Assembly (NCBI GenBank): GCA_016186765.1
Contig: JACPLD010000003.1
Span: 6,121 to 70,120, forward strand
Origin: Candidatus Kaiserbacteria bacterium
Lineage (GTDB): Bacteria; Patescibacteriota; Minisyncoccia; Phycocordibacterales; UBA2100
Direction of reading: 5' to 3'
DNA: 64,000 nt
In this document: piece after piece, positions 3,828 through 59,600 of the stretch
How positions within the stretch are numbered: the stretch's first letter is position 1
How the letters are laid out: the number at the start of each line of letters is the position of its first letter
Notes under the pieces: model-generated
Told to the model about the DNA's origin: nothing
Database searches by the model: none
Seen by the model: only the letters and a program-made list of their open reading frames with translations
Program-made: the position numbers and the translations under genes

Positions 3828-6314
3828 TCAACTCGCTGCTTCAGCTGTCTCAAACACAACGAACGAAGCAACACTATCTCCTTCTCGCAATTTCATGACT
3901 CTGACTCCTTGAGTTGCGCGGGAGAGGGTCGGGATCTCGTCGAGACCAGTGCGGATGGTTTGTGATTTCTTTGACATCGCGACGAGCTCACCTCCACCGA
4001 GAACGACCGCGGCACCCACGAGCTGCTTTGTCTTCGGCGTGATAGACATCGTCTTGATACCGCTTCCGCCCCTGCCTTGCACCTTGTACTCATCGAGCTT
4101 CGTCTTCTTGCCATAGCCGGTCGAAGAAACAACGAGCAATTCTCCTTTTGCGCCTTTCGGCACGACGCCCGTGCCGACGATCATATCTCCCCTTCCAAGC
4201 TTCATGCCGCGCACACCAGCGGCTTGCCGCCCCATCTCGCGCACTGCTCTTTCGTCAAACCGGATCGACTGCCCTTTCCCGGTCACCAAGACTACCGAAT
4301 CACTCTTGCGCACGAAGGCCGCGGATATGAGGGCATCACCCTTATCCAAATTGATCGCTATCAATCCAGAGCGGCGTACCTCGTGGAACTTATTCGCCAC
4401 GACTTTCTTGACGGTACCGTTGCGAGTCGCCATCAAAAGCGCAAGCCCTTCCACAGCCTTCTTTTCTTTCGGCATAGCGAGGATCGAAGTGATGCTTTCT
4501 CCCTGCTCGAGCGAGATGAAATTCATAATCGACTTACCCTTAGTCGCGCGTTTTCCCTCCGGCAGCTCGTACATCTTGAGTTGATACACCTTCCCACGAT
4601 CGGAGAAAAAGAGAAGGTCGGAGTGCGCGGAGGAGGTGAGAAACTCAGTCACGAAGTCTTCTTCTTTCGTGTCGAGATCGACGACGCCGATACCTCCGCG
4701 CTTCTGGCGCCGGTACTCTACCGGGTTCGTGCGTTTGATGTAGCCGCCCTGCGTGAGGACGACGACATAGTCCTCGTCTGCGACGAGATCCTCCGCAGAG
4801 AGAAGCTTCGCGGGGCGCTTCACGATCTTCGTGCGCCGCTCATCGCCATATTTTTCGATCACCTCGCGAATCTCCTTTTTGATAAGTTCGAGGAGTTTCC
4901 TCTCGCTCTTAAGGAGCGCCGCAAGCTCCTCAATCAGCGCTTGCACTTGCTTCAGCTCGTCCTCGATCTTTTTTCTCTCCAGACCGGCAAGCTTTTGGAG
5001 CTTCATGTCAAGAATCGCGTTTGTCTGCCGCTCAGAGAATTTGAATGTCTTTATCAACTCCGCGCGTGCGTCCTCCACGTCCTTGCTCTTCTTGATGAGT
5101 TTGATGATCTCGTCGATGTGGTCAAGCGCCTTCTTGAGACCAAGCAAGATGTGCTCGCGCTCCTCAGCCTTTTCCAGATCAAATTTCGTTCGCTTTGTAA
5201 CAACTTCTCTGCGAAAGGCGATAAAGTATTCGAGGAGCGCTTTGAGAGGAAGCGTCTGCGGCACGCCATCGACGAGCGCGACGATGTTGTAGTGGAATGT
5301 TTCCTCAAGCTGCGTGTGCTTGTAGAGGTAATTGAGAACAGTCTGCGCATTCGCATTGTTCTTCAGTTCAATCACCACGCGAATGTCTTTCGTCGACTCG
5401 TCGCGGATATCCCGGATCCCTTCCAACTTTTTCTCGTGCACGAGATCGGCAATCTTCGTCAGAAGATCGGCCTTATTCACGCGGAACGGTATCGATGTGA
5501 TAACGATCTGGTAATCGCCTTTCTTTCCTTCAACGATCTCCGCATCTCCGCGCACGACGACAGGACCGCGGCCAGTCGCATAGGCATGCGCGATGTCTTT
5601 TTGGTTGAAGGCGATACAACCGGTCGGAAAATCAGGTCCTTGGACGAATGAAAGCAGCTCCTCCGTCGTCGCCTCTGGATTTTCGATGAGATGCATGGCA
5701 GCCTCGCACACTTCGCGCAGGTTGTGCGGCGGAATGTTCGAGGCCATGCCGACTGCGATCCCCAGTGTACCGTTCAGAAGGAGATTCGGGATCGCCGCAG
5801 GTAACACTCCCGGCTCCTGCTTCGTGTTGTCGTAGTTGGGGCGGAACTCGACGGTCTCCTTCTCGATATCACGGAGCATTTCTGACGCGAGACGCGACAT
5901 TTTGGCTTCGGTATAGCGATATGCTGCGGGCGCGTCGCCGTCGATTGAACCGAAATTTCCCTGGCCCACGATAAGCGGGTAGCGCATCGTAAAATCCTGC
6001 GCCATCTTCACCATCGCGTCGTACACGGCCGCATCGCCGTGCGGATGGTATTTACCGATCACGTCGCCTACCACGGTTGCAGACTTTCTAGTCTTCGCGG
6101 AAACCGTGAGTCCGGCTTCCTGCATCGCGTACAAAATCCGTCGATGCACCGGCTTTAGCCCATCGCGCACGTCGGGAAGCGCGCGCGCGGTAATCACCGA
6201 CATCGCGTAGTCGAGATAGCTCTCCCGCATCTCGGTCGAGATGTCCCGCAAAACGACGCCGCGCGCGCTTCCCGGTGCGGGAGCATGAGCAGATGTGTTC
6301 TTCTCGCGTGCCAT
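3828..6314 (-). CDS. gyrA: DNA gyrase subunit A
   Basis: Contains [18 protein letters not shown] and AAYRYTE (active-site Tyr region); 828 aa with C-terminal beta-pinwheel repeats. Confidence 0.95.
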
Positions 6315-39923: not shown

Positions 39924-40397
39924 ATGAAGCGAAACCGTCGCGCCCTCCGCAGAGGAGTGGCGCTAATCGTCGTCAATCCTAACGGTGAGGTTTTGGTTCT
40001 GAAGGAACTTGAAGCAAAGCCTGACCTTGAAAAATACGTGGGGATTTACTCGATTCCCATGGAGACCGTTGAGAAAGGTGAGAGCGAGCAGGAAGCGCTC
40101 GCCCGTCTCATCACCGAAGAGCTGGGCGGTCTGTCGGTGGAAATCGAGTCTAAGAAGCGCGGCTTTTACTGGATCGCGCAAGACGCCCGAGCTTCACTCT
40201 ACGTTGGGCAGACTGATACAAGAGATCTACGCTGCCCCAGCAAGTCGGGCGAGGTCGACGGACAGCGGTGGGAATCCCCGCGAGAGGCTCTCAAGCTCTG
40301 GATCCGGCGGGGAGTGCGAGAAATGCTCCACGATTACCTCGCCGGGCGGCGAGGAGTGACATGCAGTCACTGCCGTTCCGTGGCTCCCAAGAGTTAG
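39924..40397 (+). CDS. NUDIX hydrolase
   Basis: Nudix box GESEQEALARLITEELG. Confidence 0.7.
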   Translation: MKRNRRALRRGVALIVVNPNGEVLVLKELEAKPDLEKYVGIYSIPMETVEKGESEQEALARLITEELGGLSVEIESKKRGFYWIAQDARASLYVGQTDTRDLRCPSKSGEVDGQRWESPREALKLWIRRGVREMLHDYLAGRRGVTCSHCRSVAPKS

Positions 40398-50323: not shown

Positions 50324-52540
50324 CTATTTTACAACTTTTTCAGCTTCCTCAAGTTTTACAGACAACAACTTCGACACTCCATCCTGCCCCATCGTGACGC
50401 CATAGAGCTCGCCTGCAACTGTCATAGTGGCGCGGTTGTGGGTAATGACGATAAGCTGAGATTTTGCCGCGAGTTCGCGAATCATGTCGGCGTAGCGTTT
50501 ACTGTTCGCTTCATCGAGCGCTGCGTCGGTTTCATCGAGAACAAGGAACGGCGGGGGATTCACCTGCGTCATGGAAAAGATAAGGGCGATCGAGGTAAGC
50601 GCCCGTTCGCCGCCAGAGAGCACTTCGAGTCCCTTTATCTTTTTTCTCGGTAGAGAGACAGATATGGTGAGTCCAGCATACAATTCTTCTTCTTCCTGGA
50701 ATTCTTCCTCCTCCCCCACCTCTTCGAGTTCTTTTCGAAATACTCGTCTCGGCTCTTCGATGCGCAAGCGAGCTTCCCCACCGCCGAAAAGTTTGACGAA
50801 GAACCCTTTGAGCGCCTCATTGATGCCCTCGAGTCCCTCGCGGAAGCGCACATCGATTGTCTTTTCGAGCTCTGCAATGATGTCTTTCAGCGATGCGGCA
50901 GACTTCTCTAAATCAACGAGCTCGTGCGCAAGAAATTCGTCGCGCTCCTTCATCTGTTTGAACTCTCTTACTATCTGCTCGCCGCTTCCTACTCCCGACT
51001 CTTCTATCTTGATCTTTAAACGCTCTATCTCTCGCCGTCGCTTCTCCTGCGCACCACGGTCTTCGGAAAGAGCACCAGCAGGGATGCTACCACTCTCCCA
51101 CGCTCGGACAGAGGCGCCGACGAGTACCACTCCCTCGCGCACTTCGTCATCGAAACGCTGACGAGAGACCGCAACATTTGCCCGCGCGGTCTGCACACCC
51201 GAGAGCTTCCCCTGCACCTCGCGCACCGAAACCTCGAGCTCCACGAGGTCGCGCTCGGCCGCGAAGCTCTCCTCACGCGTCTTTGCGATATTCCTTCGCA
51301 AATTCTCAAGCTCCTCTGCAAGCGCGCCTTCCTCCTTCTGCACGCGCTCAAGGGATCGGGAAAGCGTTTCCACCTGCTCCTGCACCTCTTGGTTCGTGAC
51401 CGGCGCTCCTCCTGAAAGCCCCTCGATGAACGACTTGATCCGCCTATTTGCGTCTTTAATGAGATTCATCAGATTAGGCAGGTCATCCATCCTCTCACCA
51501 TCGGACAGCAGCGCCATGAGGTCTCTTGCAAATTGGCGGACGTGCGGCACTGGCACGATTGCCTCCACCGTCACCACATTCGCTTCAAGCGCGCCTTCCG
51601 CCCTCCCGAGCTCGCGAGCAAGCCGTTCGCTCTCGCGGTGCGCCTCCGAAAGTTTGCTCTCCCTCTCTGCAAGTTTTTTCTGCAGTTCTGCGAGCGTACC
51701 GTCTCCTGCACCCTTGCTTGCAGAACGCGCGCGCGAAACGGATTCCGAGAGCTTCCTAAGCTCGGAAGCAAGAGTCTGCTCGATCTCCCGCAGGTGGACG
51801 TCCTCCTGTGTAATCCACGCATTCTCCCTAGCGAGGTAGTCGTTCAGCTTCTCTGCGAGCATCTCCTTCATTTCCCGCACCCTTTCGATTTTCTCCACCT
51901 GCTGCCGCAAAAAATTGAGATGCGGCGCAAGCTCTCTGCGGAGCGATTTAGTTTTATCGATATTGACGGCTGTTTCCTCGAGCTTCCGCTCACTCTCAAC
52001 CTTCTTGTGCTGGTAGAGCTTCAAGCCGAGCGCATCCTCCACCATCTCACGGCGCTCTCTCGGAGAGGCGTTCAAAATCCGATCGGCCTCGCCTTGCGAA
52101 ATGATCTGGTAGCCGCTTCCACCGATGTTTGCACCGGCAAGAAGCCGAATCACATCCTTCAGGCGTACTTGCGTGCCGTTCAGAACGTACTCGTTTTGCC
52201 CATCGCGGTGCACGACACGCTCGATCGCGACTTCGACAAAGTCGATGTCTAAAAGCCGCTTCATGTTGTCGAAGACGACCTTTACCGACGCGCGATTCAT
52301 GCGTGAAAGAGAAGGTGAGCCACCCCATATTAGATCTTCGCCCCTCTTGCTACGCAAACTCTTCATCGACTGCTCTCCAAGCACAAAACGAAATGCCTCC
52401 GCAACGTTCGATTTCCCCGAACCATTGGGACCTACGACGGCGACGATCGGCGAGCCAAATACAAGCTCTGTCTTTTTGCCGAAGGATTTAAATCCTGAAA
52501 GTTCTATCGATTTCAGATACATTGGCTTTAATTGTATCAA
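50324..52540 (-). CDS. smc: SMC-family chromosome segregation ATPase (short, about 738 aa)
   Basis: N-terminal Walker A GPNGSGKSN. C-terminal signature LSGGERALTSIALIF and Walker B LVLDETDAALDE. Long coiled-coil in between. Confidence 0.7.
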   Translation of the reverse strand: MIQLKPMYLKSIELSGFKSFGKKTELVFGSPIVAVVGPNGSGKSNVAEAFRFVLGEQSMKSLRSKRGEDLIWGGSPSLSRMNRASVKVVFDNMKRLLDIDFVEVAIERVVHRDGQNEYVLNGTQVRLKDVIRLLAGANIGGSGYQIISQGEADRILNASPRERREMVEDALGLKLYQHKKVESERKLEETAVNIDKTKSLRRELAPHLNFLRQQVEKIERVREMKEMLAEKLNDYLARENAWITQEDVHLREIEQTLASELRKLSESVSRARSASKGAGDGTLAELQKKLAERESKLSEAHRESERLARELGRAEGALEANVVTVEAIVPVPHVRQFARDLMALLSDGERMDDLPNLMNLIKDANRRIKSFIEGLSGGAPVTNQEVQEQVETLSRSLERVQKEEGALAEELENLRRNIAKTREESFAAERDLVELEVSVREVQGKLSGVQTARANVAVSRQRFDDEVREGVVLVGASVRAWESGSIPAGALSEDRGAQEKRRREIERLKIKIEESGVGSGEQIVREFKQMKERDEFLAHELVDLEKSAASLKDIIAELEKTIDVRFREGLEGINEALKGFFVKLFGGGEARLRIEEPRRVFRKELEEVGEEEEFQEEEELYAGLTISVSLPRKKIKGLEVLSGGERALTSIALIFSMTQVNPPPFLVLDETDAALDEANSKRYADMIRELAAKSQLIVITHNRATMTVAGELYGVTMGQDGVSKLLSVKLEEAEKVVK

Positions 52541-52555
52541 AAAGTTCGAGTCTCA

Positions 52556-52594
52556 GGCTTCAAGCCTGAGACTCGGTTTTCTGTCTCCGCGCAA
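52556..52594 (-). terminator. Rho-independent terminator on the minus strand (perfect 13-bp stem GAGTCTCAGGCTT/AAGCCTGAGACTC followed by a T-run)
   Basis: Perfect palindrome; on the minus strand the hairpin is followed by CTTTTTG. Confidence 0.6.
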
Positions 52595-52608
52595 GAGACG
52601 AAGTGGGC

Positions 52609-52827
52609 TCAGCCGCCGAGGGCGGCTGCGACAATGCCCGAGGCGCGTTCAGCACAGGCGCCAAGAACAACGATCAAACCGGCCGCAACGATCACGACTG
52701 CGATCACATAGCCGGGCGTGTGCTCGACCTTGAGGGCCTCGGAGAACTTCTTCAAGGCCTCGTAGTCTTTGACTGGACTGATGTCCGCATAATCACGGCG
52801 CTTCTTCATCGCCCTCCTCCTTAGCAA
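52609..52827 (-). CDS. hypothetical small membrane protein
   Basis: 72 aa with one C-terminal TM helix. Confidence 0.25.
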   Translation of the reverse strand: MLRRRAMKKRRDYADISPVKDYEALKKFSEALKVEHTPGYVIAVVIVAAGLIVVLGACAERASGIVAAALGG

Positions 52828-52865
52828 AAACGGGACTACCCGCTAGCCCCACTTGTAGATTGCCA

Positions 52866-53573
52866 CTACCAACCCTTAGCTGCAAGAGCTCTCTGTGCAG
52901 CACTCTGTTCAGCTTCCTGCTTGCTTCTCCCCTCGCCTGTGGCGACACGCTCGGCTCCGATGTATGCACCGACCACGAAACGTTTGTCGTGGTCGGGGCC
53001 GGACTGATCCAAGAGTTCATACTTCGGGGTGATGCCCAAAAGGTCCTGCGAGGCCTCCTGCAAACGGCTCTTCGCATCCTGCCAGAGACGCTTTGCGACG
53101 ACCTCGTCGGCCTTGTGGAATACCTGGTCTGCGATAAATCGCTGTGCGGTCGGATACCCGCCGTCAAGGTAGAGTGCGCCTATCAATGCCTCAAACGCAT
53201 TTGCGAGGATTATCTGTCGCGCGCGACCCGTGTCGCGCGCCTCGCCACGGGAGAGAAGGAGGTACTCGTTCATGCCGAGCTTCGTCGCAGCATCAGAAAT
53301 GCTCTGCGTATTCACAAGCGCGGCGCGATACGCCGTGAGGTCGCCCTCCGGCTTATCCGGATACTTTGCGTATAGAAATTCAGTCACCGCGAGTTCAAGA
53401 ACAGCGTCACCCAAGAATTCCAGCCGCTCATTGTGATCGCGCCCGAGCTCGCGGTTCTCGTTGAGATACGAGCGGTGCGTGAACGCCTGCTCCAGTAAGC
53501 GTTGGTTTCTGAAATGATGCCCGATTTTCTTTTCAAATTGAGTGAAATCCATATTCGATAAGCCATTAGCCAC
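52866..53573 (-). CDS. rnc: ribonuclease III
   Basis: RNase III signature ERLEFLGDAVLELAV and a C-terminal dsRBD. Confidence 0.9.
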   Translation of the reverse strand: MANGLSNMDFTQFEKKIGHHFRNQRLLEQAFTHRSYLNENRELGRDHNERLEFLGDAVLELAVTEFLYAKYPDKPEGDLTAYRAALVNTQSISDAATKLGMNEYLLLSRGEARDTGRARQIILANAFEALIGALYLDGGYPTAQRFIADQVFHKADEVVAKRLWQDAKSRLQEASQDLLGITPKYELLDQSGPDHDKRFVVGAYIGAERVATGEGRSKQEAEQSAAQRALAAKGW

Positions 53574-53630
53574 TAGGGTTTAGGGATGAAAAAAACATGA
53601 TGCATTGTACAAGTGGCTATACCCTATTGG

Positions 53631-54542
53631 CTAATTACCTTTCTTGGCGAGGGCATTTATCGCAGGAATGATGATCTTCAAGGTGTCGTCATAAAAGTTC
53701 AAATCTCCGACCGTGGAGAGCGGAAACCACTGCGCATCATCCAAACCGCCAGATGGACCGAGCTTCAGCTCCGTAAACGGCGACTCCGCTAGAAAGTACG
53801 TAACACGTTTCCGCTTCTTGCCACCTTCGACCTTCGAATCGTTCGCAACATACTCGTTGACGCCGAGCTCCTCCTTGATCGTGATATCGAGTCCCATTTC
53901 CTCTTTTATTTCACGCACGGCACCCGCACGGATGTCTTCACCCTCCTCTATCTTGCCCTTAGAAATCGTCCAATGGCCGAAAATGTCGTGCACGAATGCG
54001 AGATACGTCTCACCCTTGTTCTTCGCGTATACGACGGCTCCCGCGAGGTGTTCGGTCGGCATCTTTGCGGGTTTGTCTCCCTCTTTCTTGCGCGTGCCGC
54101 CCTCGTTCTTCCCCGGCTCGCCGAGCTCTATGTAGACAGCGCCCAATACGCCGTTCACAAAGCGTCCCGAGGAAGCGGAGCCGAACGTCTTTGCGAGCTC
54201 GATAGCCTCATTGATTGCTACTTTTGCGGGCACCTGCGTGCGGTCGGCAAAAAGAAGTTCCGCAAGGCCGAGGCGAAGGACATTGCGGTCGATCGCTGCA
54301 ATCTTCTCAAGCGGCCACTCAGGTGCAGCGCGCACGATCACCTCGTCGATTTCTTTTTGCTTTGCAACCGCCGTCTGCAGGAGCTGTTCCATGAACGGCA
54401 TATCGCTCTCGCGCGCGCCGAATTCTTTCGCATACTCGACAAGACGCGAGCGCGCCTCGTCACCCTCGATTTTGCCGCCCGATTGATCGCGCTCGAAAAG
54501 CACTTGGAGCACTACACAGCGAGCTAGGTGTCGGTTGGCCAT
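53631..54542 (-). CDS. nusB: NusB antitermination domain fused to a C-terminal NUDIX hydrolase domain
   Basis: N-terminal roughly 140 aa match NusB (AAIDRNVLRLGLAELLF...PAKVAINEAIELAK..GS..SGRFVNGVLG). The C-terminal half carries the Nudix box GKIEEGEDIRAGAVREIKEEMGL. Confidence 0.6.
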   Translation of the reverse strand: MANRHLARCVVLQVLFERDQSGGKIEGDEARSRLVEYAKEFGARESDMPFMEQLLQTAVAKQKEIDEVIVRAAPEWPLEKIAAIDRNVLRLGLAELLFADRTQVPAKVAINEAIELAKTFGSASSGRFVNGVLGAVYIELGEPGKNEGGTRKKEGDKPAKMPTEHLAGAVVYAKNKGETYLAFVHDIFGHWTISKGKIEEGEDIRAGAVREIKEEMGLDITIKEELGVNEYVANDSKVEGGKKRKRVTYFLAESPFTELKLGPSGGLDDAQWFPLSTVGDLNFYDDTLKIIIPAINALAKKGN

Positions 54543-54596
54543 ATCAGCTCGAAAGATCAGACGAACGAAAGAGCCAGTGATTTCAAGTCCAAAAGA

Positions 54597-54869
54597 TTAT
54601 GACTGGGCGGTTTCCTTTTCCTTATCCTCAGTAATCTGTCCGGATTCGCGGAGTGCTTTTTCACGACGCGTATCACGTCGGGCCTGCCGTTTCGCGCGCG
54701 CGACAATGTCGATGACGATGCGACCGTTGTATTTTCCACAGGATGGGCACGCGCGATGCGGAAGGCGCGCTGCGCCGCACTCGCATTTCACTGTATGGAC
54801 ACCCTCAAGCGCATGATGGCTCCGTCGCTTCGCGGTTTCCGACCTGTTCCGGCGCATTCGCACTACCAT
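54597..54869 (-). CDS. rpmF: 50S ribosomal protein L32
   Basis: RRSHHAL...C.CG...LPHRACPSCGKYNGR. Confidence 0.75.
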   Translation of the reverse strand: MVVRMRRNRSETAKRRSHHALEGVHTVKCECGAARLPHRACPSCGKYNGRIVIDIVARAKRQARRDTRREKALRESGQITEDKEKETAQS

Positions 54870-54892
54870 AGTCTCGCGATTATACAGAAATT

Positions 54893-55486
54893 TCAGCGAA
54901 CAGCAAACTTCTGACTGTACGTCATTCGGTGGATTTCGCAGAGACCAAATCGTCGGATAGCCTCGCGATGGCTTCTCGTTCCATATCCTTTATGCTGTTC
55001 GAAGCCATAGCTCGGGAATTTTTTTGCAAACCTCGTCATGAGCCTATCGCGGGTAACTTTGGCTGCTATTGCCGCAAGCGATATGATTGGAAGCACATCG
55101 TCTCCCCCAACGATCGTTTGTTGATTTTTGAACTCATCCGGTGCCGAGAGGAGGCCGTCGAGAAAGACGTTCGAACGAGAAGGATCGGCACGAAGCATCT
55201 GAAGCGCGCGCTCGATAGCGAATTGCACCGCCATAGTGATCCCCTTCTCGTCTATCATCGAGTGCGGCGCGAACGCGACAGAGAATTTCAAGATTCCTTC
55301 GCGCTGCATTTGTTGCATCAGTCGAAAATATCGCTCGCGCGCGGGCTTTGACATGAGCTTCGAGTCGCGCACCCCTCCAACGAGCGACCAATCAAACCCG
55401 CTCTTCACCATCGCCGCACCGACGGCGACTGGTCCCGCCAGGGGCGCTCGTCCTGCTTCGTCAATGCCGATGAGATACCGCATCAC
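54893..55486 (-). CDS. rnhB: ribonuclease HII
   Basis: LIGIDEAGRAPLAGPV and the DDSK region. Confidence 0.85.
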   Translation of the reverse strand: MMRYLIGIDEAGRAPLAGPVAVGAAMVKSGFDWSLVGGVRDSKLMSKPARERYFRLMQQMQREGILKFSVAFAPHSMIDEKGITMAVQFAIERALQMLRADPSRSNVFLDGLLSAPDEFKNQQTIVGGDDVLPIISLAAIAAKVTRDRLMTRFAKKFPSYGFEQHKGYGTRSHREAIRRFGLCEIHRMTYSQKFAVR

Positions 55487-55550
55487 GTCACATCATAGCA
55501 GAAGGGACCGAACGACGTCGGTCCCTCTGTAAGTCTCGCGAAGTGAGCCG

Positions 55551-55814
55551 TCATACCGGGAGATCAAACTCAATCTCCTCGACGTACCCCTCTTCCGAGA
55601 TGACAGCAACGTAGAACTGGCTCACGCTCAGCGTCACGCCGCCATTTAGCGGCGCGAAGTTGTGGCGCTCAATGACCTGCTCAAGTTCCGCGTCATCCGC
55701 GCCAGCTGCGAGGCGTTCTCGCAGCTCAGCCTCTAGTACTCCAGCCTTTGCTTGACGAGCATTATGCAGCTCGTCGCGCAATAGCGATGTCGCTTCAGCC
55801 ATAGGACTCTCCAT
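55551..55814 (-). CDS. hypothetical small protein
   Basis: 87-aa ORF upstream of rnhB; no motif. Confidence 0.25.
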   Translation of the reverse strand: MESPMAEATSLLRDELHNARQAKAGVLEAELRERLAAGADDAELEQVIERHNFAPLNGGVTLSVSQFYVAVISEEGYVEEIEFDLPV

Positions 55815-55935
55815 TGTCGGATTTCGGCCCCGACTTTACCGCCGCGCGCAGGGCACGGGCAATCTGCTAGAGCTCAATATATCACGCAGCGAAGCCTCAA
55901 ACAACGGAAAAAAACGCGAGTGATATACTTCGTGT

Positions 55936-58900
55936 ATGTCGCGTGATTTTGTCCACCTACACACACATTCGCACTACTCGCTGCTTGAGGCACTGCCAAA
56001 AATTCCCGAGCTCGTTGCTGCAGCGGCGAAAGACGGGCAGAAAGCGCTCGCGCTTACCGACAACGGGAACCTCTACGGTGCAATAGAGTTTTACAAAGAG
56101 TGCAATGAAAACAGCATCAAGCCCATCATCGGCGTTGACTTCCACGTAGCCCCGCGCTCACGCGCACAAAAGGAGCATCGCGTGGACGACCAAACTTCGC
56201 GCCTTGTGCTTCTCGCGAAGAATGAAACGGGATACCGCAATCTCATTCAACTGGTCTCGAAAGCGCATCTCGAAGGCTTCTACTACCGCCCTCGCATCGA
56301 CCGCGAGCTTATCGAGAAGTTCCGGGAGGGCCTCATCGCGATTCTTCCCAGCTACGGTGGCGAGCATGCGCATGCGATCCGCCACGGCTCTGCAGCGTAT
56401 GCCGAAGAAATCATGCACTGGTTCAATATGCTCTTTGGAGAAGATTGCTACGCGGAGATAACGCGCCATCCGGAGATCGTAGAGCACGAAGAGCAGATGC
56501 AAGATATCGTCGCGCGTGCGAAAGCGGTAGGAGTCCCGCTCGTTGCAGCGCACGATGTCTACTACCTTTTGCCCGAAGACTTGCTCGCATGCGATCTTGT
56601 CAACAAAATCCGGACGGGCGGGGCACTCAACCGCGATGCAGAAACCACGCTGCGCAACTTTTCTTTTATTCCCCGCGCGCGCGCGGCGGAGCTGTTCGCC
56701 GATCTGCCCGATGCGCTCGAAAATACTCTGAAGATCGCAGAAGCGTGCGGCCTGCGACTAACCTTGGGAAAAGCCATCCTTCCACACTTCCCCATTGCAG
56801 AGCATTCGACGCACAACGAGGAATTGAGAGCGCTCGCAGAGAGCGGAATCCCCTTGAGAGAACTCTCCGACACCCCGGAGTTGCGAGCTCGACTCGAGTA
56901 TGAGCTCGATATCATCGGCAAGAAGGGCTATGCGTCTTACTTCCTGATCGTCGCGGATCTCCTCCGACACGCGCGGGAACGCGGCATCTACACCAACACG
57001 CGCGGCTCCGCCGCTGGCTCCCTTGTTTCCTACCTCTGCGGCATCACGACGGTTGATCCAATCAAATTCCAAATGCCGTTCGAGCGCTTTCTCAATCCCG
57101 AGCGGCCTTCCGCGCCCGACATTGATATGGACATCGCCGACGACCGCCGCGACGAATTGATTGAGTATGTGCGTCACAAGTACGGAGAAGATAGAGTGGC
57201 ACAGATTGGCACCTTTGGCACGATGATGGCACGCGCTGCTGTGCGCGATGTCGCGCGGGCACTCGGCCACCCCTACGGATTGGGCGACACGATCGCGAAG
57301 CTCATCCCTTTCGGCAAACAGGGCTTCCCCGTTTCTATCAAGAGCGCGCTCGAGAGCACGCCAGAGCTCGCGCAAATCTATAAGAGCGATGCCGCGAGCC
57401 GTGAGATCCTCGATCTCGCGCAAAAGGTCGAGGGCAACGCGCGACACGTCGGCGTGCACGCAGCGGGAGTCGTTATCGCGCCCTCACCGGTCACCGACTT
57501 CTCGCCTATCCAGCTCGATCCCAAAGGCGGAAAAACGATCACGCAGTACGATATGTACTCGATAACCGATGAATATGGGGGAGTCGGACTCCTCAAATTT
57601 GACCTTCTCGGACTCACCAACCTCTCCGTCCTCTCAGACGCCGTGAATCGCGTCCGCGAGCGCCTTGGCATTGAGATTGATCTCGATCGCCTCCCCCTCG
57701 ATGATGAGAAAACATACGCGATGCTTTCAAGCGGGCAGACGCATGGCGTTTTCCAGCTTTCAGGCGGCGGTATGACGAGCTACCTCACAAACCTTGAGCC
57801 CTCGACCATCCACGATATCAACGCGATGGTCGCCCTCTACCGCCCAGGCCCGATAGCCTTCATCCCCGCGTACATCGAACGCAAAAAGAACCCGAAACTC
57901 ATCCGCTACCTTGATCCGCGCATGGAGCCGATCCTCAAAAATTCATACGGCGTCATCGTCTACCAAGACGATGTCTTGGAGATCGCAATAAAGCTTGCGG
58001 GCTACAGCTGGCTCGAAGCTGATAAATTCCGCAAGGCGATGGGGAAAAAGATCCCCGCAGAAATGCGCGCGCAAAAGGAAAAGTTCACGAGCGGCTGCGT
58101 GAAGCACGGGATGAAGAAGGATGTGGCGCAAAGACTATGGGAGCAGATCGAAACCTTCGCAGCGTATGGCTTCAATAAGGCGCATGCTGCAAGTTATGGC
58201 AATCTCGCCTACAAAACGGCATACATGAAGGCGAATTTTCCGGTGCACTACATGGCGGCACTTCTCACGGCAGACGCGGGCGACGTGGATAAGACCGCAG
58301 AGACGGTGCAAGAGTGTAAACGAATGGGGATCTCGGTCTTGCCTCCATCGGTCAACGAGAGTCGAGGCGACTTTACGGTCATAGGTGACACAAGTATTCG
58401 TTTCGGTCTCTATTCCATAAAAAACTTCGGCCGCGGCGTCGCCAACTCCATCGTTGCCGCCCGCCTTCGCTCCGCCGAAGCTCGCAAGAGCGAAGGCGAG
58501 CTTCCCGGAGCTTCGGCGAGGCAAGCACGCGAAGGTCCGTTCAAGGACATCGCCGACTTCCTTTCCCGTGTCCCCGACAAGAACCTCAACAAGAAACAGC
58601 TCGAGTCGCTCGTCCAATCAGGCGCGCTCGACGAGCTCGGAGAGCGCGGTGCGCTCCTCTCAAACATCGACCTCCTTTTGAATTACCATCGCGAGCACAT
58701 GAAGGCCCCCTCGGACCAGGGATCGCTCTTCTCCTCGGCTTCGCTTGGGGTACGTGGTGCGCTGCCACTCAAACTACTCGCTGGAAAACAAGCGACGCTC
58801 GAAGAGCGGCTCGCATGGGAAAAAGAGCTGCTCGGCCTCTATGTTTCAGGTCATCCCCTAGACAAGTACAAGGCGAAGTTTGCTAACCCCAAGAAAACCA

Positions 58901-59225: not shown

Positions 59226-59600
59226 ATGCAAAGGAGACAACGGATGCCACAAACTAGAGCGTCGATTCTCAAAGGCTGCGGCAAGGCTGTCCGGTCGGTT
59301 TACGCCAACGGAAAAGTATCCGAAGCCGACCGAAACAACCTCGAACGAGGCCACCAACTCCTGTTCGGCCTGATCAGAAACTTGGCGAGCGAGACGCCGA
59401 AGTATCGACTTCAAATCGAACGCGCGCTACAAGATGTGCATCCGCGGACCGATTATTGCATTGCGATGTTGATCCGCGACATCGCCGACGTTTGTGTCAC
59501 CCTGAACCGACTTCGAGCGGGTGGCGGCCGCTCAGTCGAATCGAAGGTGGTTGATGCTTCTGCACTCTGCATCCACCTCGGCTACGAGTTTAGGGCTTGA
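59226..59600 (+). CDS. hypothetical protein
   Basis: 124-aa ORF preceded by an AAGGAGA ribosome-binding site. Confidence 0.3.
   Translation: MQRRQRMPQTRASILKGCGKAVRSVYANGKVSEADRNNLERGHQLLFGLIRNLASETPKYRLQIERALQDVHPRTDYCIAMLIRDIADVCVTLNRLRAGGGRSVESKVVDASALCIHLGYEFRA

Follow-up and report, generated by a model that had tools for sequence, protein, structure and literature searches.

Can NusB, a core factor of rRNA transcription in all bacteria on which, to our knowledge, no enzymatic or nucleotide-binding appendage has been characterised, carry such a domain, and what would the domain do there? The question is raised by a gene located at positions 53631 to 54542 (minus strand) of a 64,000-nucleotide stretch of a Candidatus Kaiserbacteria genome (assembly GCA_016186765.1, contig JACPLD010000003.1, positions 6,121 to 70,120), called here the window, whose coordinates are used throughout. 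An initial annotation, made from the sequence alone, had read this gene as a fusion of NusB with a Nudix hydrolase of the RppH type, encoded just upstream of rnc, that would couple the rRNA antitermination complex to RNA 5'-end processing. We have found that the gene encodes a two-domain protein made of an orthologous NusB, a disordered tether of ~20-30 residues and a Nudix domain. The fusion is one of NusB with a Nudix domain of the diadenosine tetraphosphate (Ap4A) hydrolase type, abundant in the databases, unremarked and functionally unexplored.

Two domains in a single gene

The features of the gene and its product are the following.

53631 to 54542, minus strand: complete nusB::nudix gene, a single open reading frame of 303 codons plus stop, with an ATG start and without internal stop
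54123 to 54542, minus strand: NusB domain, residues 1-140, seven helices (TIGR01951, AlphaFold2, Foldseek)
54057 to 54122, minus strand: flexible tether, residues 141-162 (low model confidence)
53634 to 54056, minus strand: Nudix domain of the Ap4A-hydrolase type, residues 163-303 (PF00293, profile against the PDB, Foldseek)
53889 to 53957, minus strand: Nudix box GKIEEGEDIRAGAVREIKEEMGL, residues 196-218 (regular-expression match to the signature)
53685 to 53960, minus strand: span with the predicted nucleotide-pocket residues outside the catalytic set (alignment to human NUDT2)
53958 to 53960, minus strand: K195, predicted pocket residue
53850 to 53852, minus strand: Y231, predicted pocket residue
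53691 to 53693, minus strand: Y284, predicted pocket residue
53685 to 53687, minus strand: D286, predicted pocket residue

Residues 7-136 match the Pfam family PF01029 NusB (E 1.3e-29, 103.7 bits against a cutoff of 23.1) and the protein also passes the nusB equivalog model of NCBIfam, TIGR01951 (112 bits, cutoff 88.35), which confirms that the N-terminal ~140 amino acids are NusB. In the C-terminal half PF00293 NUDIX is found at residues 186-278 (E 8.2e-15, 55.4 bits, gathering score 21.1), and the Nudix signature GX5EX7REUXEEXGU is matched exactly by residues 196-218, so that the box is as canonical as had been annotated. Both domains are thus detected in one reading frame with rnc as the next gene downstream, and the fusion stands where it had been placed.

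The structure was predicted with AlphaFold2 from an alignment of 103 sequences, with a mean predicted local distance difference test score (pLDDT) of 85.6. The model has a seven-helix NusB (residues 1-140, pLDDT mostly above 90) and a Nudix alpha/beta sandwich (residues 163-301), separated by a segment, residues 143-158, with pLDDT below 50; the predicted template modelling score (pTM) of the whole was 0.53. The protein is therefore modelled as two well-folded domains whose mutual orientation is undefined. In Foldseek comparisons the NusB half superimposed on the Aquifex and Thermotoga NusB structures 3r2c, 3r2d and 1tzv with target template modelling scores (TMt) of 0.84-0.88 and root-mean-square deviations (rmsd) of 1.8-2.0, the match to Aquifex NusB in the NusB-NusE-BoxA complex (3r2c) reaching TMt 0.87-0.88 with rmsd 2.0. 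Residues conserved in this half over the whole family are R4 and R8 (the N-terminal Arg motif), D85-R90, E95, F128 and G131. Unlike the characterised NusB proteins, the fusion has 160 additional residues, tether and Nudix domain together.

The tether varies between 10 and 47 amino acids across the fusion family and is roughly neutral. A positively charged RNA-binding linker was considered and is not supported, the net charge being ~0 and the length variable. The tether starts with the motif E-(L/I/M)-G-E-P-G-K (residues 139-145, positions 54108-54128, minus strand), present in ~245 of 297 sequences, which caps the last NusB helix. At least one stand-alone NusB (P0211, '...EIGEPNKDQKTKDKKSKK') carries the same motif C-terminally, which hints either at a secondary truncation of the fusion or at a role of the motif that is independent of the Nudix domain. 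We also noted that an internal ATG codon, Met161, lies where the Nudix domain starts, with the purine-rich AAGAAAGAGGGAGA ~14 nucleotides upstream of it (positions 54054-54095, minus strand). Separate translation of the Nudix domain from Met161 is conceivable; this methionine is not conserved family-wide.

The nearest architectural precedent is RsmB (Sun), in which a NusB-fold RNA-binding module also stands N-terminal to an enzyme, and the NusB half does produce weak matches to RsmB models. There the partner of a NusB-like paralogue is an S-adenosylmethionine-dependent 16S rRNA 5-methylcytosine methyltransferase, whereas here an orthologous NusB is joined to a Nudix domain. The protein is not an RsmB: the models TIGR00563 and PRK14902 gave 29-40 bits against cutoffs of 269-319 (40 against 319 at best) and aligned to the NusB part alone.

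Authenticity and distribution of the fusion

A missed stop codon, or an error in sequencing or assembly, could have joined two adjacent genes, nusB and a Nudix gene, in the record. The identical protein (P0001) is recorded on 6 contigs, labelled Candidatus Kaiserbacteria (Parcubacteria group), and both Pfam domains are present, within an uninterrupted reading frame, in all of its 120 best homologues (82-100% identity), which come from NCBI, JGI, ENA and Logan assemblies. This rules out a missing stop codon or a frameshift. What could be taken as support for an artefact are a few short 'Nudix-only' or 'NusB-only' database entries; the former start within the last helix of NusB or within the linker, and have the appearance of truncated gene calls. 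With the fusion present in each of the 80 species loci described below, and on contigs of up to 710 kb, we regard an artefact as so improbable that it can be set aside. A separate case is P0239, a stand-alone Nudix protein of 142 amino acids. It looks MutT-like in its N-terminal half (GQWVAPGGRIEFGE...) and is almost the same as the fused-type domain in its C-terminal half, so that it must be a recombinant gene or else a chimera of the assembly.

The survey of related genomes was carried out on GTDB with one genome per species. A relative of the fusion is encoded by 440 stretches of GTDB contigs, and among the best 80 of them, the ones examined (58-88% identity), the two-domain protein was found in every one. 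Nearly all span residues 1-300, the two exceptions being at a contig end or reaching only residue 252. The record titles among these 80 include Kaiserbacteria, Adlerbacteria, Paceibacterota, Minisyncoccia and Parcubacteria. Many TPA_asm contigs from metagenome-assembled genomes (L001, L002, L010 and others) are titled 'uncultured Candidatus Saccharibacteria bacterium' and encode proteins 70-88% identical to the fusion, a title that was probably given wholesale or in error. When 1.84 billion cluster representatives were scanned exhaustively with HMMER, 107 clusters were retrieved at E <= 1e-30, and among the matches listed ~56 were full-length two-domain proteins, down to 31% identity. A further 120 two-domain proteins came from a profile search, their contigs being as long as 710 kb. 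In total, two-domain relatives have been verified in at least 80 species genomes, besides thousands of metagenomic sequences, and the fusion is conserved across a large clade of Parcubacteria.

In spite of this abundance we found no description of a NusB-Nudix architecture in the searchable literature, and the impression that it was undescribed holds. Nor is there a curated NCBIfam model for such a fusion, and the 120 best homologues, where they have a database name at all, are called "NusB" only, an annotation that hides the second domain. A whole radiation of ultra-small, uncultivated bacteria has a predicted nucleoside 5'-polyphosphate pocket permanently joined to NusB.

The Nudix half is related to Ap4A hydrolases

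A family profile built from 36 diverse C-terminal halves was compared with the PDB. The best match, over its full length, was the Aquifex Ap4A hydrolase aq_158 (3i7u; E 7.8e-22, positions 2-137 of 142), followed by CT771 (3e-16), human NUDT2 (2e-13), the Caenorhabditis elegans Ap4A hydrolase (9e-13) and the Thermus Ap6A hydrolase Ndx1 (2e-12). Much weaker were Dcp2 (~1e-8) and Bdellovibrio RppH (6e-5), the latter across the box only. Structure comparison agrees: the top Foldseek match of the Nudix half is again 3i7u (TMt 0.85), with family neighbours at TMt 0.83-0.85, and the other top matches include MutT1/Rv2985 (titled "a Nudix diadenosine polyphosphatase"), Ndx1, CT771, NUDT2 and the Nudix domain of NrtR with ADP-ribose (3gz8). 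The Nudix half thus belongs to the Ap4A-hydrolase family (aq_158, NUDT2, CT771 and the N-terminal domain of MutT1). Three features align with the Ap4A hydrolases of human, Aquifex and C. elegans and with CT771: the W-T-x-x-K-G motif, the pair of stacking aromatics and the acidic residue that follows the second of them. It differs from these proteins in being fused to NusB and in that most members of the fusion family lack E211 (aligned to NUDT2 E58) and often other glutamates.

The label 'RppH-type' has to be abandoned. The E. coli type of RppH (PRK00714) gave 24.2-25.8 bits against 118 and 17.8-19.3 against 116, with the box region alone aligned, and the B. subtilis type (YtkD, TIGR02705) 12.9 bits against a cutoff of 154.4, so that the domain falls below all the RppH model cutoffs. 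A resemblance to RppH would be one of activity, since this too is a Nudix protein that could conceivably act on nucleoside 5'-polyphosphate ends, and E. coli RppH also hydrolyses diadenosine polyphosphates (ApnA). RppH-like activity on RNA 5' ends is conceivable by analogy, because an Ap4A hydrolase, NUDT2, dephosphorylates PPP-RNA, turning it into P-RNA as RppH does (PMC8616924). MutT1 of mycobacteria is the best NCBIfam match of the Nudix half (NF052459) as well as a top structural one, but with 38-41 bits the fusion is far below the cutoff of 475, it has no second catalytic domain, and the partner in MutT1/Rv2985 is a histidine phosphatase located on the opposite side.

The window contains another Nudix gene, at 39924-40397 (plus strand), which is real as annotated (PF00293, 41 bits) and encodes 157 amino acids. 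Its identity to the fused domain is only 23%, by which a recent duplication of this gene as the source of the fused domain is rejected. Read from the translation its box is non-canonical, with E at the first Gly position and 'RL' instead of 'RE' (ARLITEELGG), and the NCBIfam models most similar to it are those of RppH, where its scores of 20-27 bits fall far short of the cutoffs. There is therefore no clearly canonical free Nudix hydrolase in this region of the genome.

With this family assignment the domain could be an ordinary housekeeping enzyme, an Ap4A/ApnA or a MutT1-like oxidised-nucleotide hydrolase that works on the free pool and was fused for co-expression, saving a promoter in a reduced genome or at most sanitising nucleoside triphosphates (NTPs) locally near the heavily transcribed rRNA operons. 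The best matches in sequence and structure do act on free (di)nucleoside polyphosphates and 8-oxo-(d)GTP, and a flexible linker without predicted interface is what functionally independent domains would have. The evolution of the domain, described in the next section, is difficult to reconcile with this explanation.

Loss of the catalytic box and persistence of the pocket

Every catalytic residue of the Nudix box is intact in this genome. We scored seven key positions of the box (G196, E202, R210, E211, E214, E215 and G217) over increasingly distant relatives. The complete set of seven is present in 108 of the 121 closest sequences, in 62 of 120 profile matches at 53-62% identity and in just 9 of 56 full-length representatives of the 50%-identity clusters. 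E211 is conserved in only 25% of the cluster representatives; its counterpart in the alignment is NUDT2 E58, which is changed to alanine in structure 4ijx (E58A). Mean pairwise identity is 28.5% in the box and 29.4% in the rest of the Nudix domain. Canonical boxes are scattered on a neighbour-joining tree, where at least 8 changes of state are counted, from which it follows that the box decayed independently more than once.

The best-conserved residues of the Nudix domain are G168, D186, F188, W191, T192, K195, Y231, Y249, W272 and Y284. By profile alignment to NUDT2, K195 corresponds to K42, Y231 to Y82, Y284 to F128 and D286 to E130. In the NUDT2 pocket Lys42 and Tyr82 hold the P1 phosphate, a conserved Tyr and Phe128 stack the adenine, and Glu130 makes a hydrogen bond with its amino group (PMC4734340). 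Of the 59 members in which at least two catalytic positions are substituted, 95% retain K195, 85% Y231 (with Phe in another 8%), 90% Y284 and 86% D286. As far as the alignments tell, then, the catalytic glutamates were lost many times and the purine-stacking and phosphate-holding residues were kept. Because catalytic residues decay while pocket residues persist, the function common to the family is most economically read as the binding of a purine nucleoside 5'-polyphosphate moiety, with hydrolysis apparently retained in some lineages including that of the window. Such loss of catalysis with retention of the binding residues is a natural experiment on how an enzyme becomes a binding module.

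In close relatives the ratio of non-synonymous to synonymous substitutions (dN/dS), obtained from only ~10 pairs with unsaturated synonymous sites, was ~0.15 for NusB and ~0.13 for the Nudix domain, against 0.34 for the tether. The low values of the two domains indicate purifying selection on each of them in this lineage.

The decay pattern disfavours a purely catalytic housekeeping role. An enzyme maintained only for its chemistry should not lose the catalytic glutamates in most lineages and yet keep the domain and its binding residues, and the fusion is intact in the ~56 clusters that reach down to 31% identity. Taking into account the absence of a Nudix gene next to stand-alone nusB (see below), which leaves no operon pair to be merged, we consider the housekeeping explanation unlikely.

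The same pattern would be expected if the domain were a nucleotide sensor, a ligand-binding module through which Ap4A, ATP or a related alarmone modulates the interaction of NusB with BoxA, S10 or RNA polymerase and so tunes rRNA synthesis, hydrolysis serving just to reset it. There are parallels for this behaviour in the Nudix domain of NrtR with ADP-ribose, found among the top structural matches, and in CF Im25, an RNA-processing Nudix protein that lacks two box glutamates and binds Ap4A at 2.4 uM without hydrolysing it (PMC2425470). Both NrtR and CF Im25 (NUDT21, a binder of Ap4A or RNA) keep a Nudix fold with a degenerate box for binding, in association with a nucleic-acid-binding function, and resemble in this the degenerate-box majority of the fusion family; unlike them, the copy in the window has a fully canonical box, and beyond the fold there is no specific sequence relation. 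Because the intact Kaiserbacteria box is under purifying selection, a purely non-catalytic role is disfavoured in this lineage, as a pure sensor would not need the full catalytic set. Besides, the model predicts no interdomain interface through which binding could be transmitted, and a sensor seems to us unlikely, to the same degree as the housekeeping enzyme.

A third possibility is that the Nudix fold acts as a structural subunit, a scaffold for protein-protein or RNA contacts in the rRNA antitermination complex. SuhB, which has the fold of an inositol monophosphatase, serves non-catalytically in the E. coli complex (rrnTAC) and provides a parallel. Catalysis is dispensable in most lineages, and the junction motif E-x-GEPGK is conserved, as a scaffold might have it. 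What makes this role very improbable is that the best-conserved residues align to the nucleotide pocket of the Ap4A hydrolases and not to any evident new surface.

Gene order and origin of the fusion

The genes that accompany nusB::nudix in the window are these.

54893 to 55486, minus strand: rnhB (RNase HII), first gene of the co-directional cluster (Pfam RNase_HII)
54597 to 54869, minus strand: rpmF (ribosomal protein L32), upstream of the fusion with a gap of 54 nucleotides (Pfam Ribosomal_L32p)
52866 to 53573, minus strand: rnc (RNase III), next downstream with a gap of 57 nucleotides (Pfam Ribonucleas_3_3 and dsrm)
50324 to 52540, minus strand: smc, last conserved member of the cluster (tblastn synteny; SMC_N domain in locus L161)

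The co-directional order (dnaE<) rnhB-rpmF-nusB::nudix-rnc-smc is kept across the 80 GTDB loci, with the synteny of rnc counted in 77 of them. The order is the same in a distant relative with a degenerate box (P0150, 35% identity, locus L161 on a 657-kb contig). At L161 (positions 5893-5900) the stop of nusB::nudix overlaps the start of rnc by 8 nucleotides, where the window has a gap of 57, and the overlap suggests translational coupling in that genome.

For comparison we used 80 metagenomic loci chosen by their similarity to stand-alone NusB of Patescibacteria. A stand-alone nusB of 137-230 codons was present in 58 of the 80, in the same slot, rpmF-nusB-rnc-smc, that the fusion occupies, and a Nudix gene within 4 kb of it was seen as one weak match among the 58 loci. 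The merger of a pre-existing pair of nusB and Nudix genes is accordingly not supported, a neighbouring Nudix gene being essentially missing. Since stand-alone nusB holds the same slot without a fused-type Nudix gene nearby, the Nudix domain was added in situ at the 3' end of nusB, and the adjacency of nusB and rnc is older than the fusion. The N-terminal part of the fusion thus passes the NusB equivalog model and its gene stands in the slot of the stand-alone nusB of related Patescibacteria. No second NusB was found in the 64-kb window. On a neighbour-joining tree of the NusB domain, a short domain of 138 columns, fused and stand-alone forms make up large pure blocks with 9 state changes.

A possible role at the rRNA leader

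NusB binds, together with S10, the BoxA element of the rRNA leader, and it travels with RNA polymerase on the rRNA operons. A fused NusB sitting at BoxA would thus carry a tethered nucleoside 5'-polyphosphate pocket within reach of the nascent leader RNA. The likeliest ligand would be the 5'-terminal pppA or pppG, or an Np4-type cap, of the very transcript held by NusB. In the Kaiserbacteria lineage the Nudix domain would probably leave a 5'-monophosphate at this end by hydrolysis, in the manner of NUDT2 and RppH. After cleavage by RNase III the monophosphate would single out the excised leader, still bound by NusB, for 5'-end-dependent decay, and this decay would recycle NusB. In the lineages with a dead box the domain would bind the leader end without hydrolysis.

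The different parts of this proposal deserve different confidence. Taken as a whole, that an orthologous NusB with an Ap4A-hydrolase-family pocket acts near the leader RNA is the best explanation that we can offer, and we hold it to be about evenly balanced between true and false. That the ligand is an RNA 5' end, which we propose by analogy, is plausible without reaching that level; a free ApnA or NTP, including oxidised NTPs in a housekeeping role, is somewhat less probable, a regulatory small molecule sensed by the domain rather unlikely, and any other ligand more unlikely still. The complete scheme, in which the domain reads the leader 5' end and, where the box is intact, its conversion to a monophosphate couples leader decay and NusB recycling to RNase III, the end being anchored or sensed where the box is dead, is speculative and we would not expect it to hold in all its detail.

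Several points weigh against a role at the leader RNA or limit the case for it. The closest solved relatives have been characterised on the free nucleotides named above and not on RNA. The adjacency of rnc, which might be taken as evidence for coupling, is rejected as such: the same order is found around stand-alone nusB, and because the adjacency predates the fusion it cannot count. An Rfam scan of the window detected two tRNAs only, without rRNA operon, rRNA leader or BoxA. The model has no defined interdomain interface, so no predicted geometry joins the pocket to BoxA RNA. The equivalences with NUDT2 residues were drawn from sequence alignment and not from superposition, and the dN/dS ratios come from the ~10 unsaturated pairs only. 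Finally, an obligatory enzymatic coupling is weakened by the loss of catalytic box residues in most of the diverse members. Of the proposed coupling between the antitermination complex and RNA 5'-end processing there remains, therefore, the possibility of RNA 5' chemistry, for which NUDT2 is the precedent; the argument from the position of rnc is lost, as it is not specific to the fusion, and that of an obligatory enzymatic link is reduced by the decay of the box.

If either RNA 5' ends or a signal of the Ap4A type were read or processed by the pocket, the synthesis of rRNA would be coupled in a new way to RNA maturation or nucleotide signalling, in organisms whose regulatory repertoires are minimal. 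If the reading of the leader 5' end were true, there would be a previously unknown hard-wired link from the antitermination complex to 5'-end-dependent RNA processing, and a single orthologous fusion would grade naturally from enzyme to pseudo-enzyme.

Other features of the window

The wider window is a housekeeping region that includes rpoB, rpoC, trmD, rpsP and dnaE. A scan of positions 52400-56000 for promoters and terminators gave nothing above chance, and no terminator was detected in it between nusB::nudix and rnc. Three reading frames matched no Pfam family at the thresholds used: 55551-55814 (minus strand, 87 amino acids, acidic), 59226-59600 (plus strand, 124 amino acids) and 61022-62452 (minus strand, 476 amino acids). 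Terminator-like sites in the region are no more frequent than the shuffled expectation. At 52546-52576, just upstream of the smc start, there is a GC-rich hairpin of 14 perfect base pairs, symmetric with respect to the two strands, which sits downstream of a hydrophobic reading frame of 72 amino acids (52609-52827, no Pfam match).

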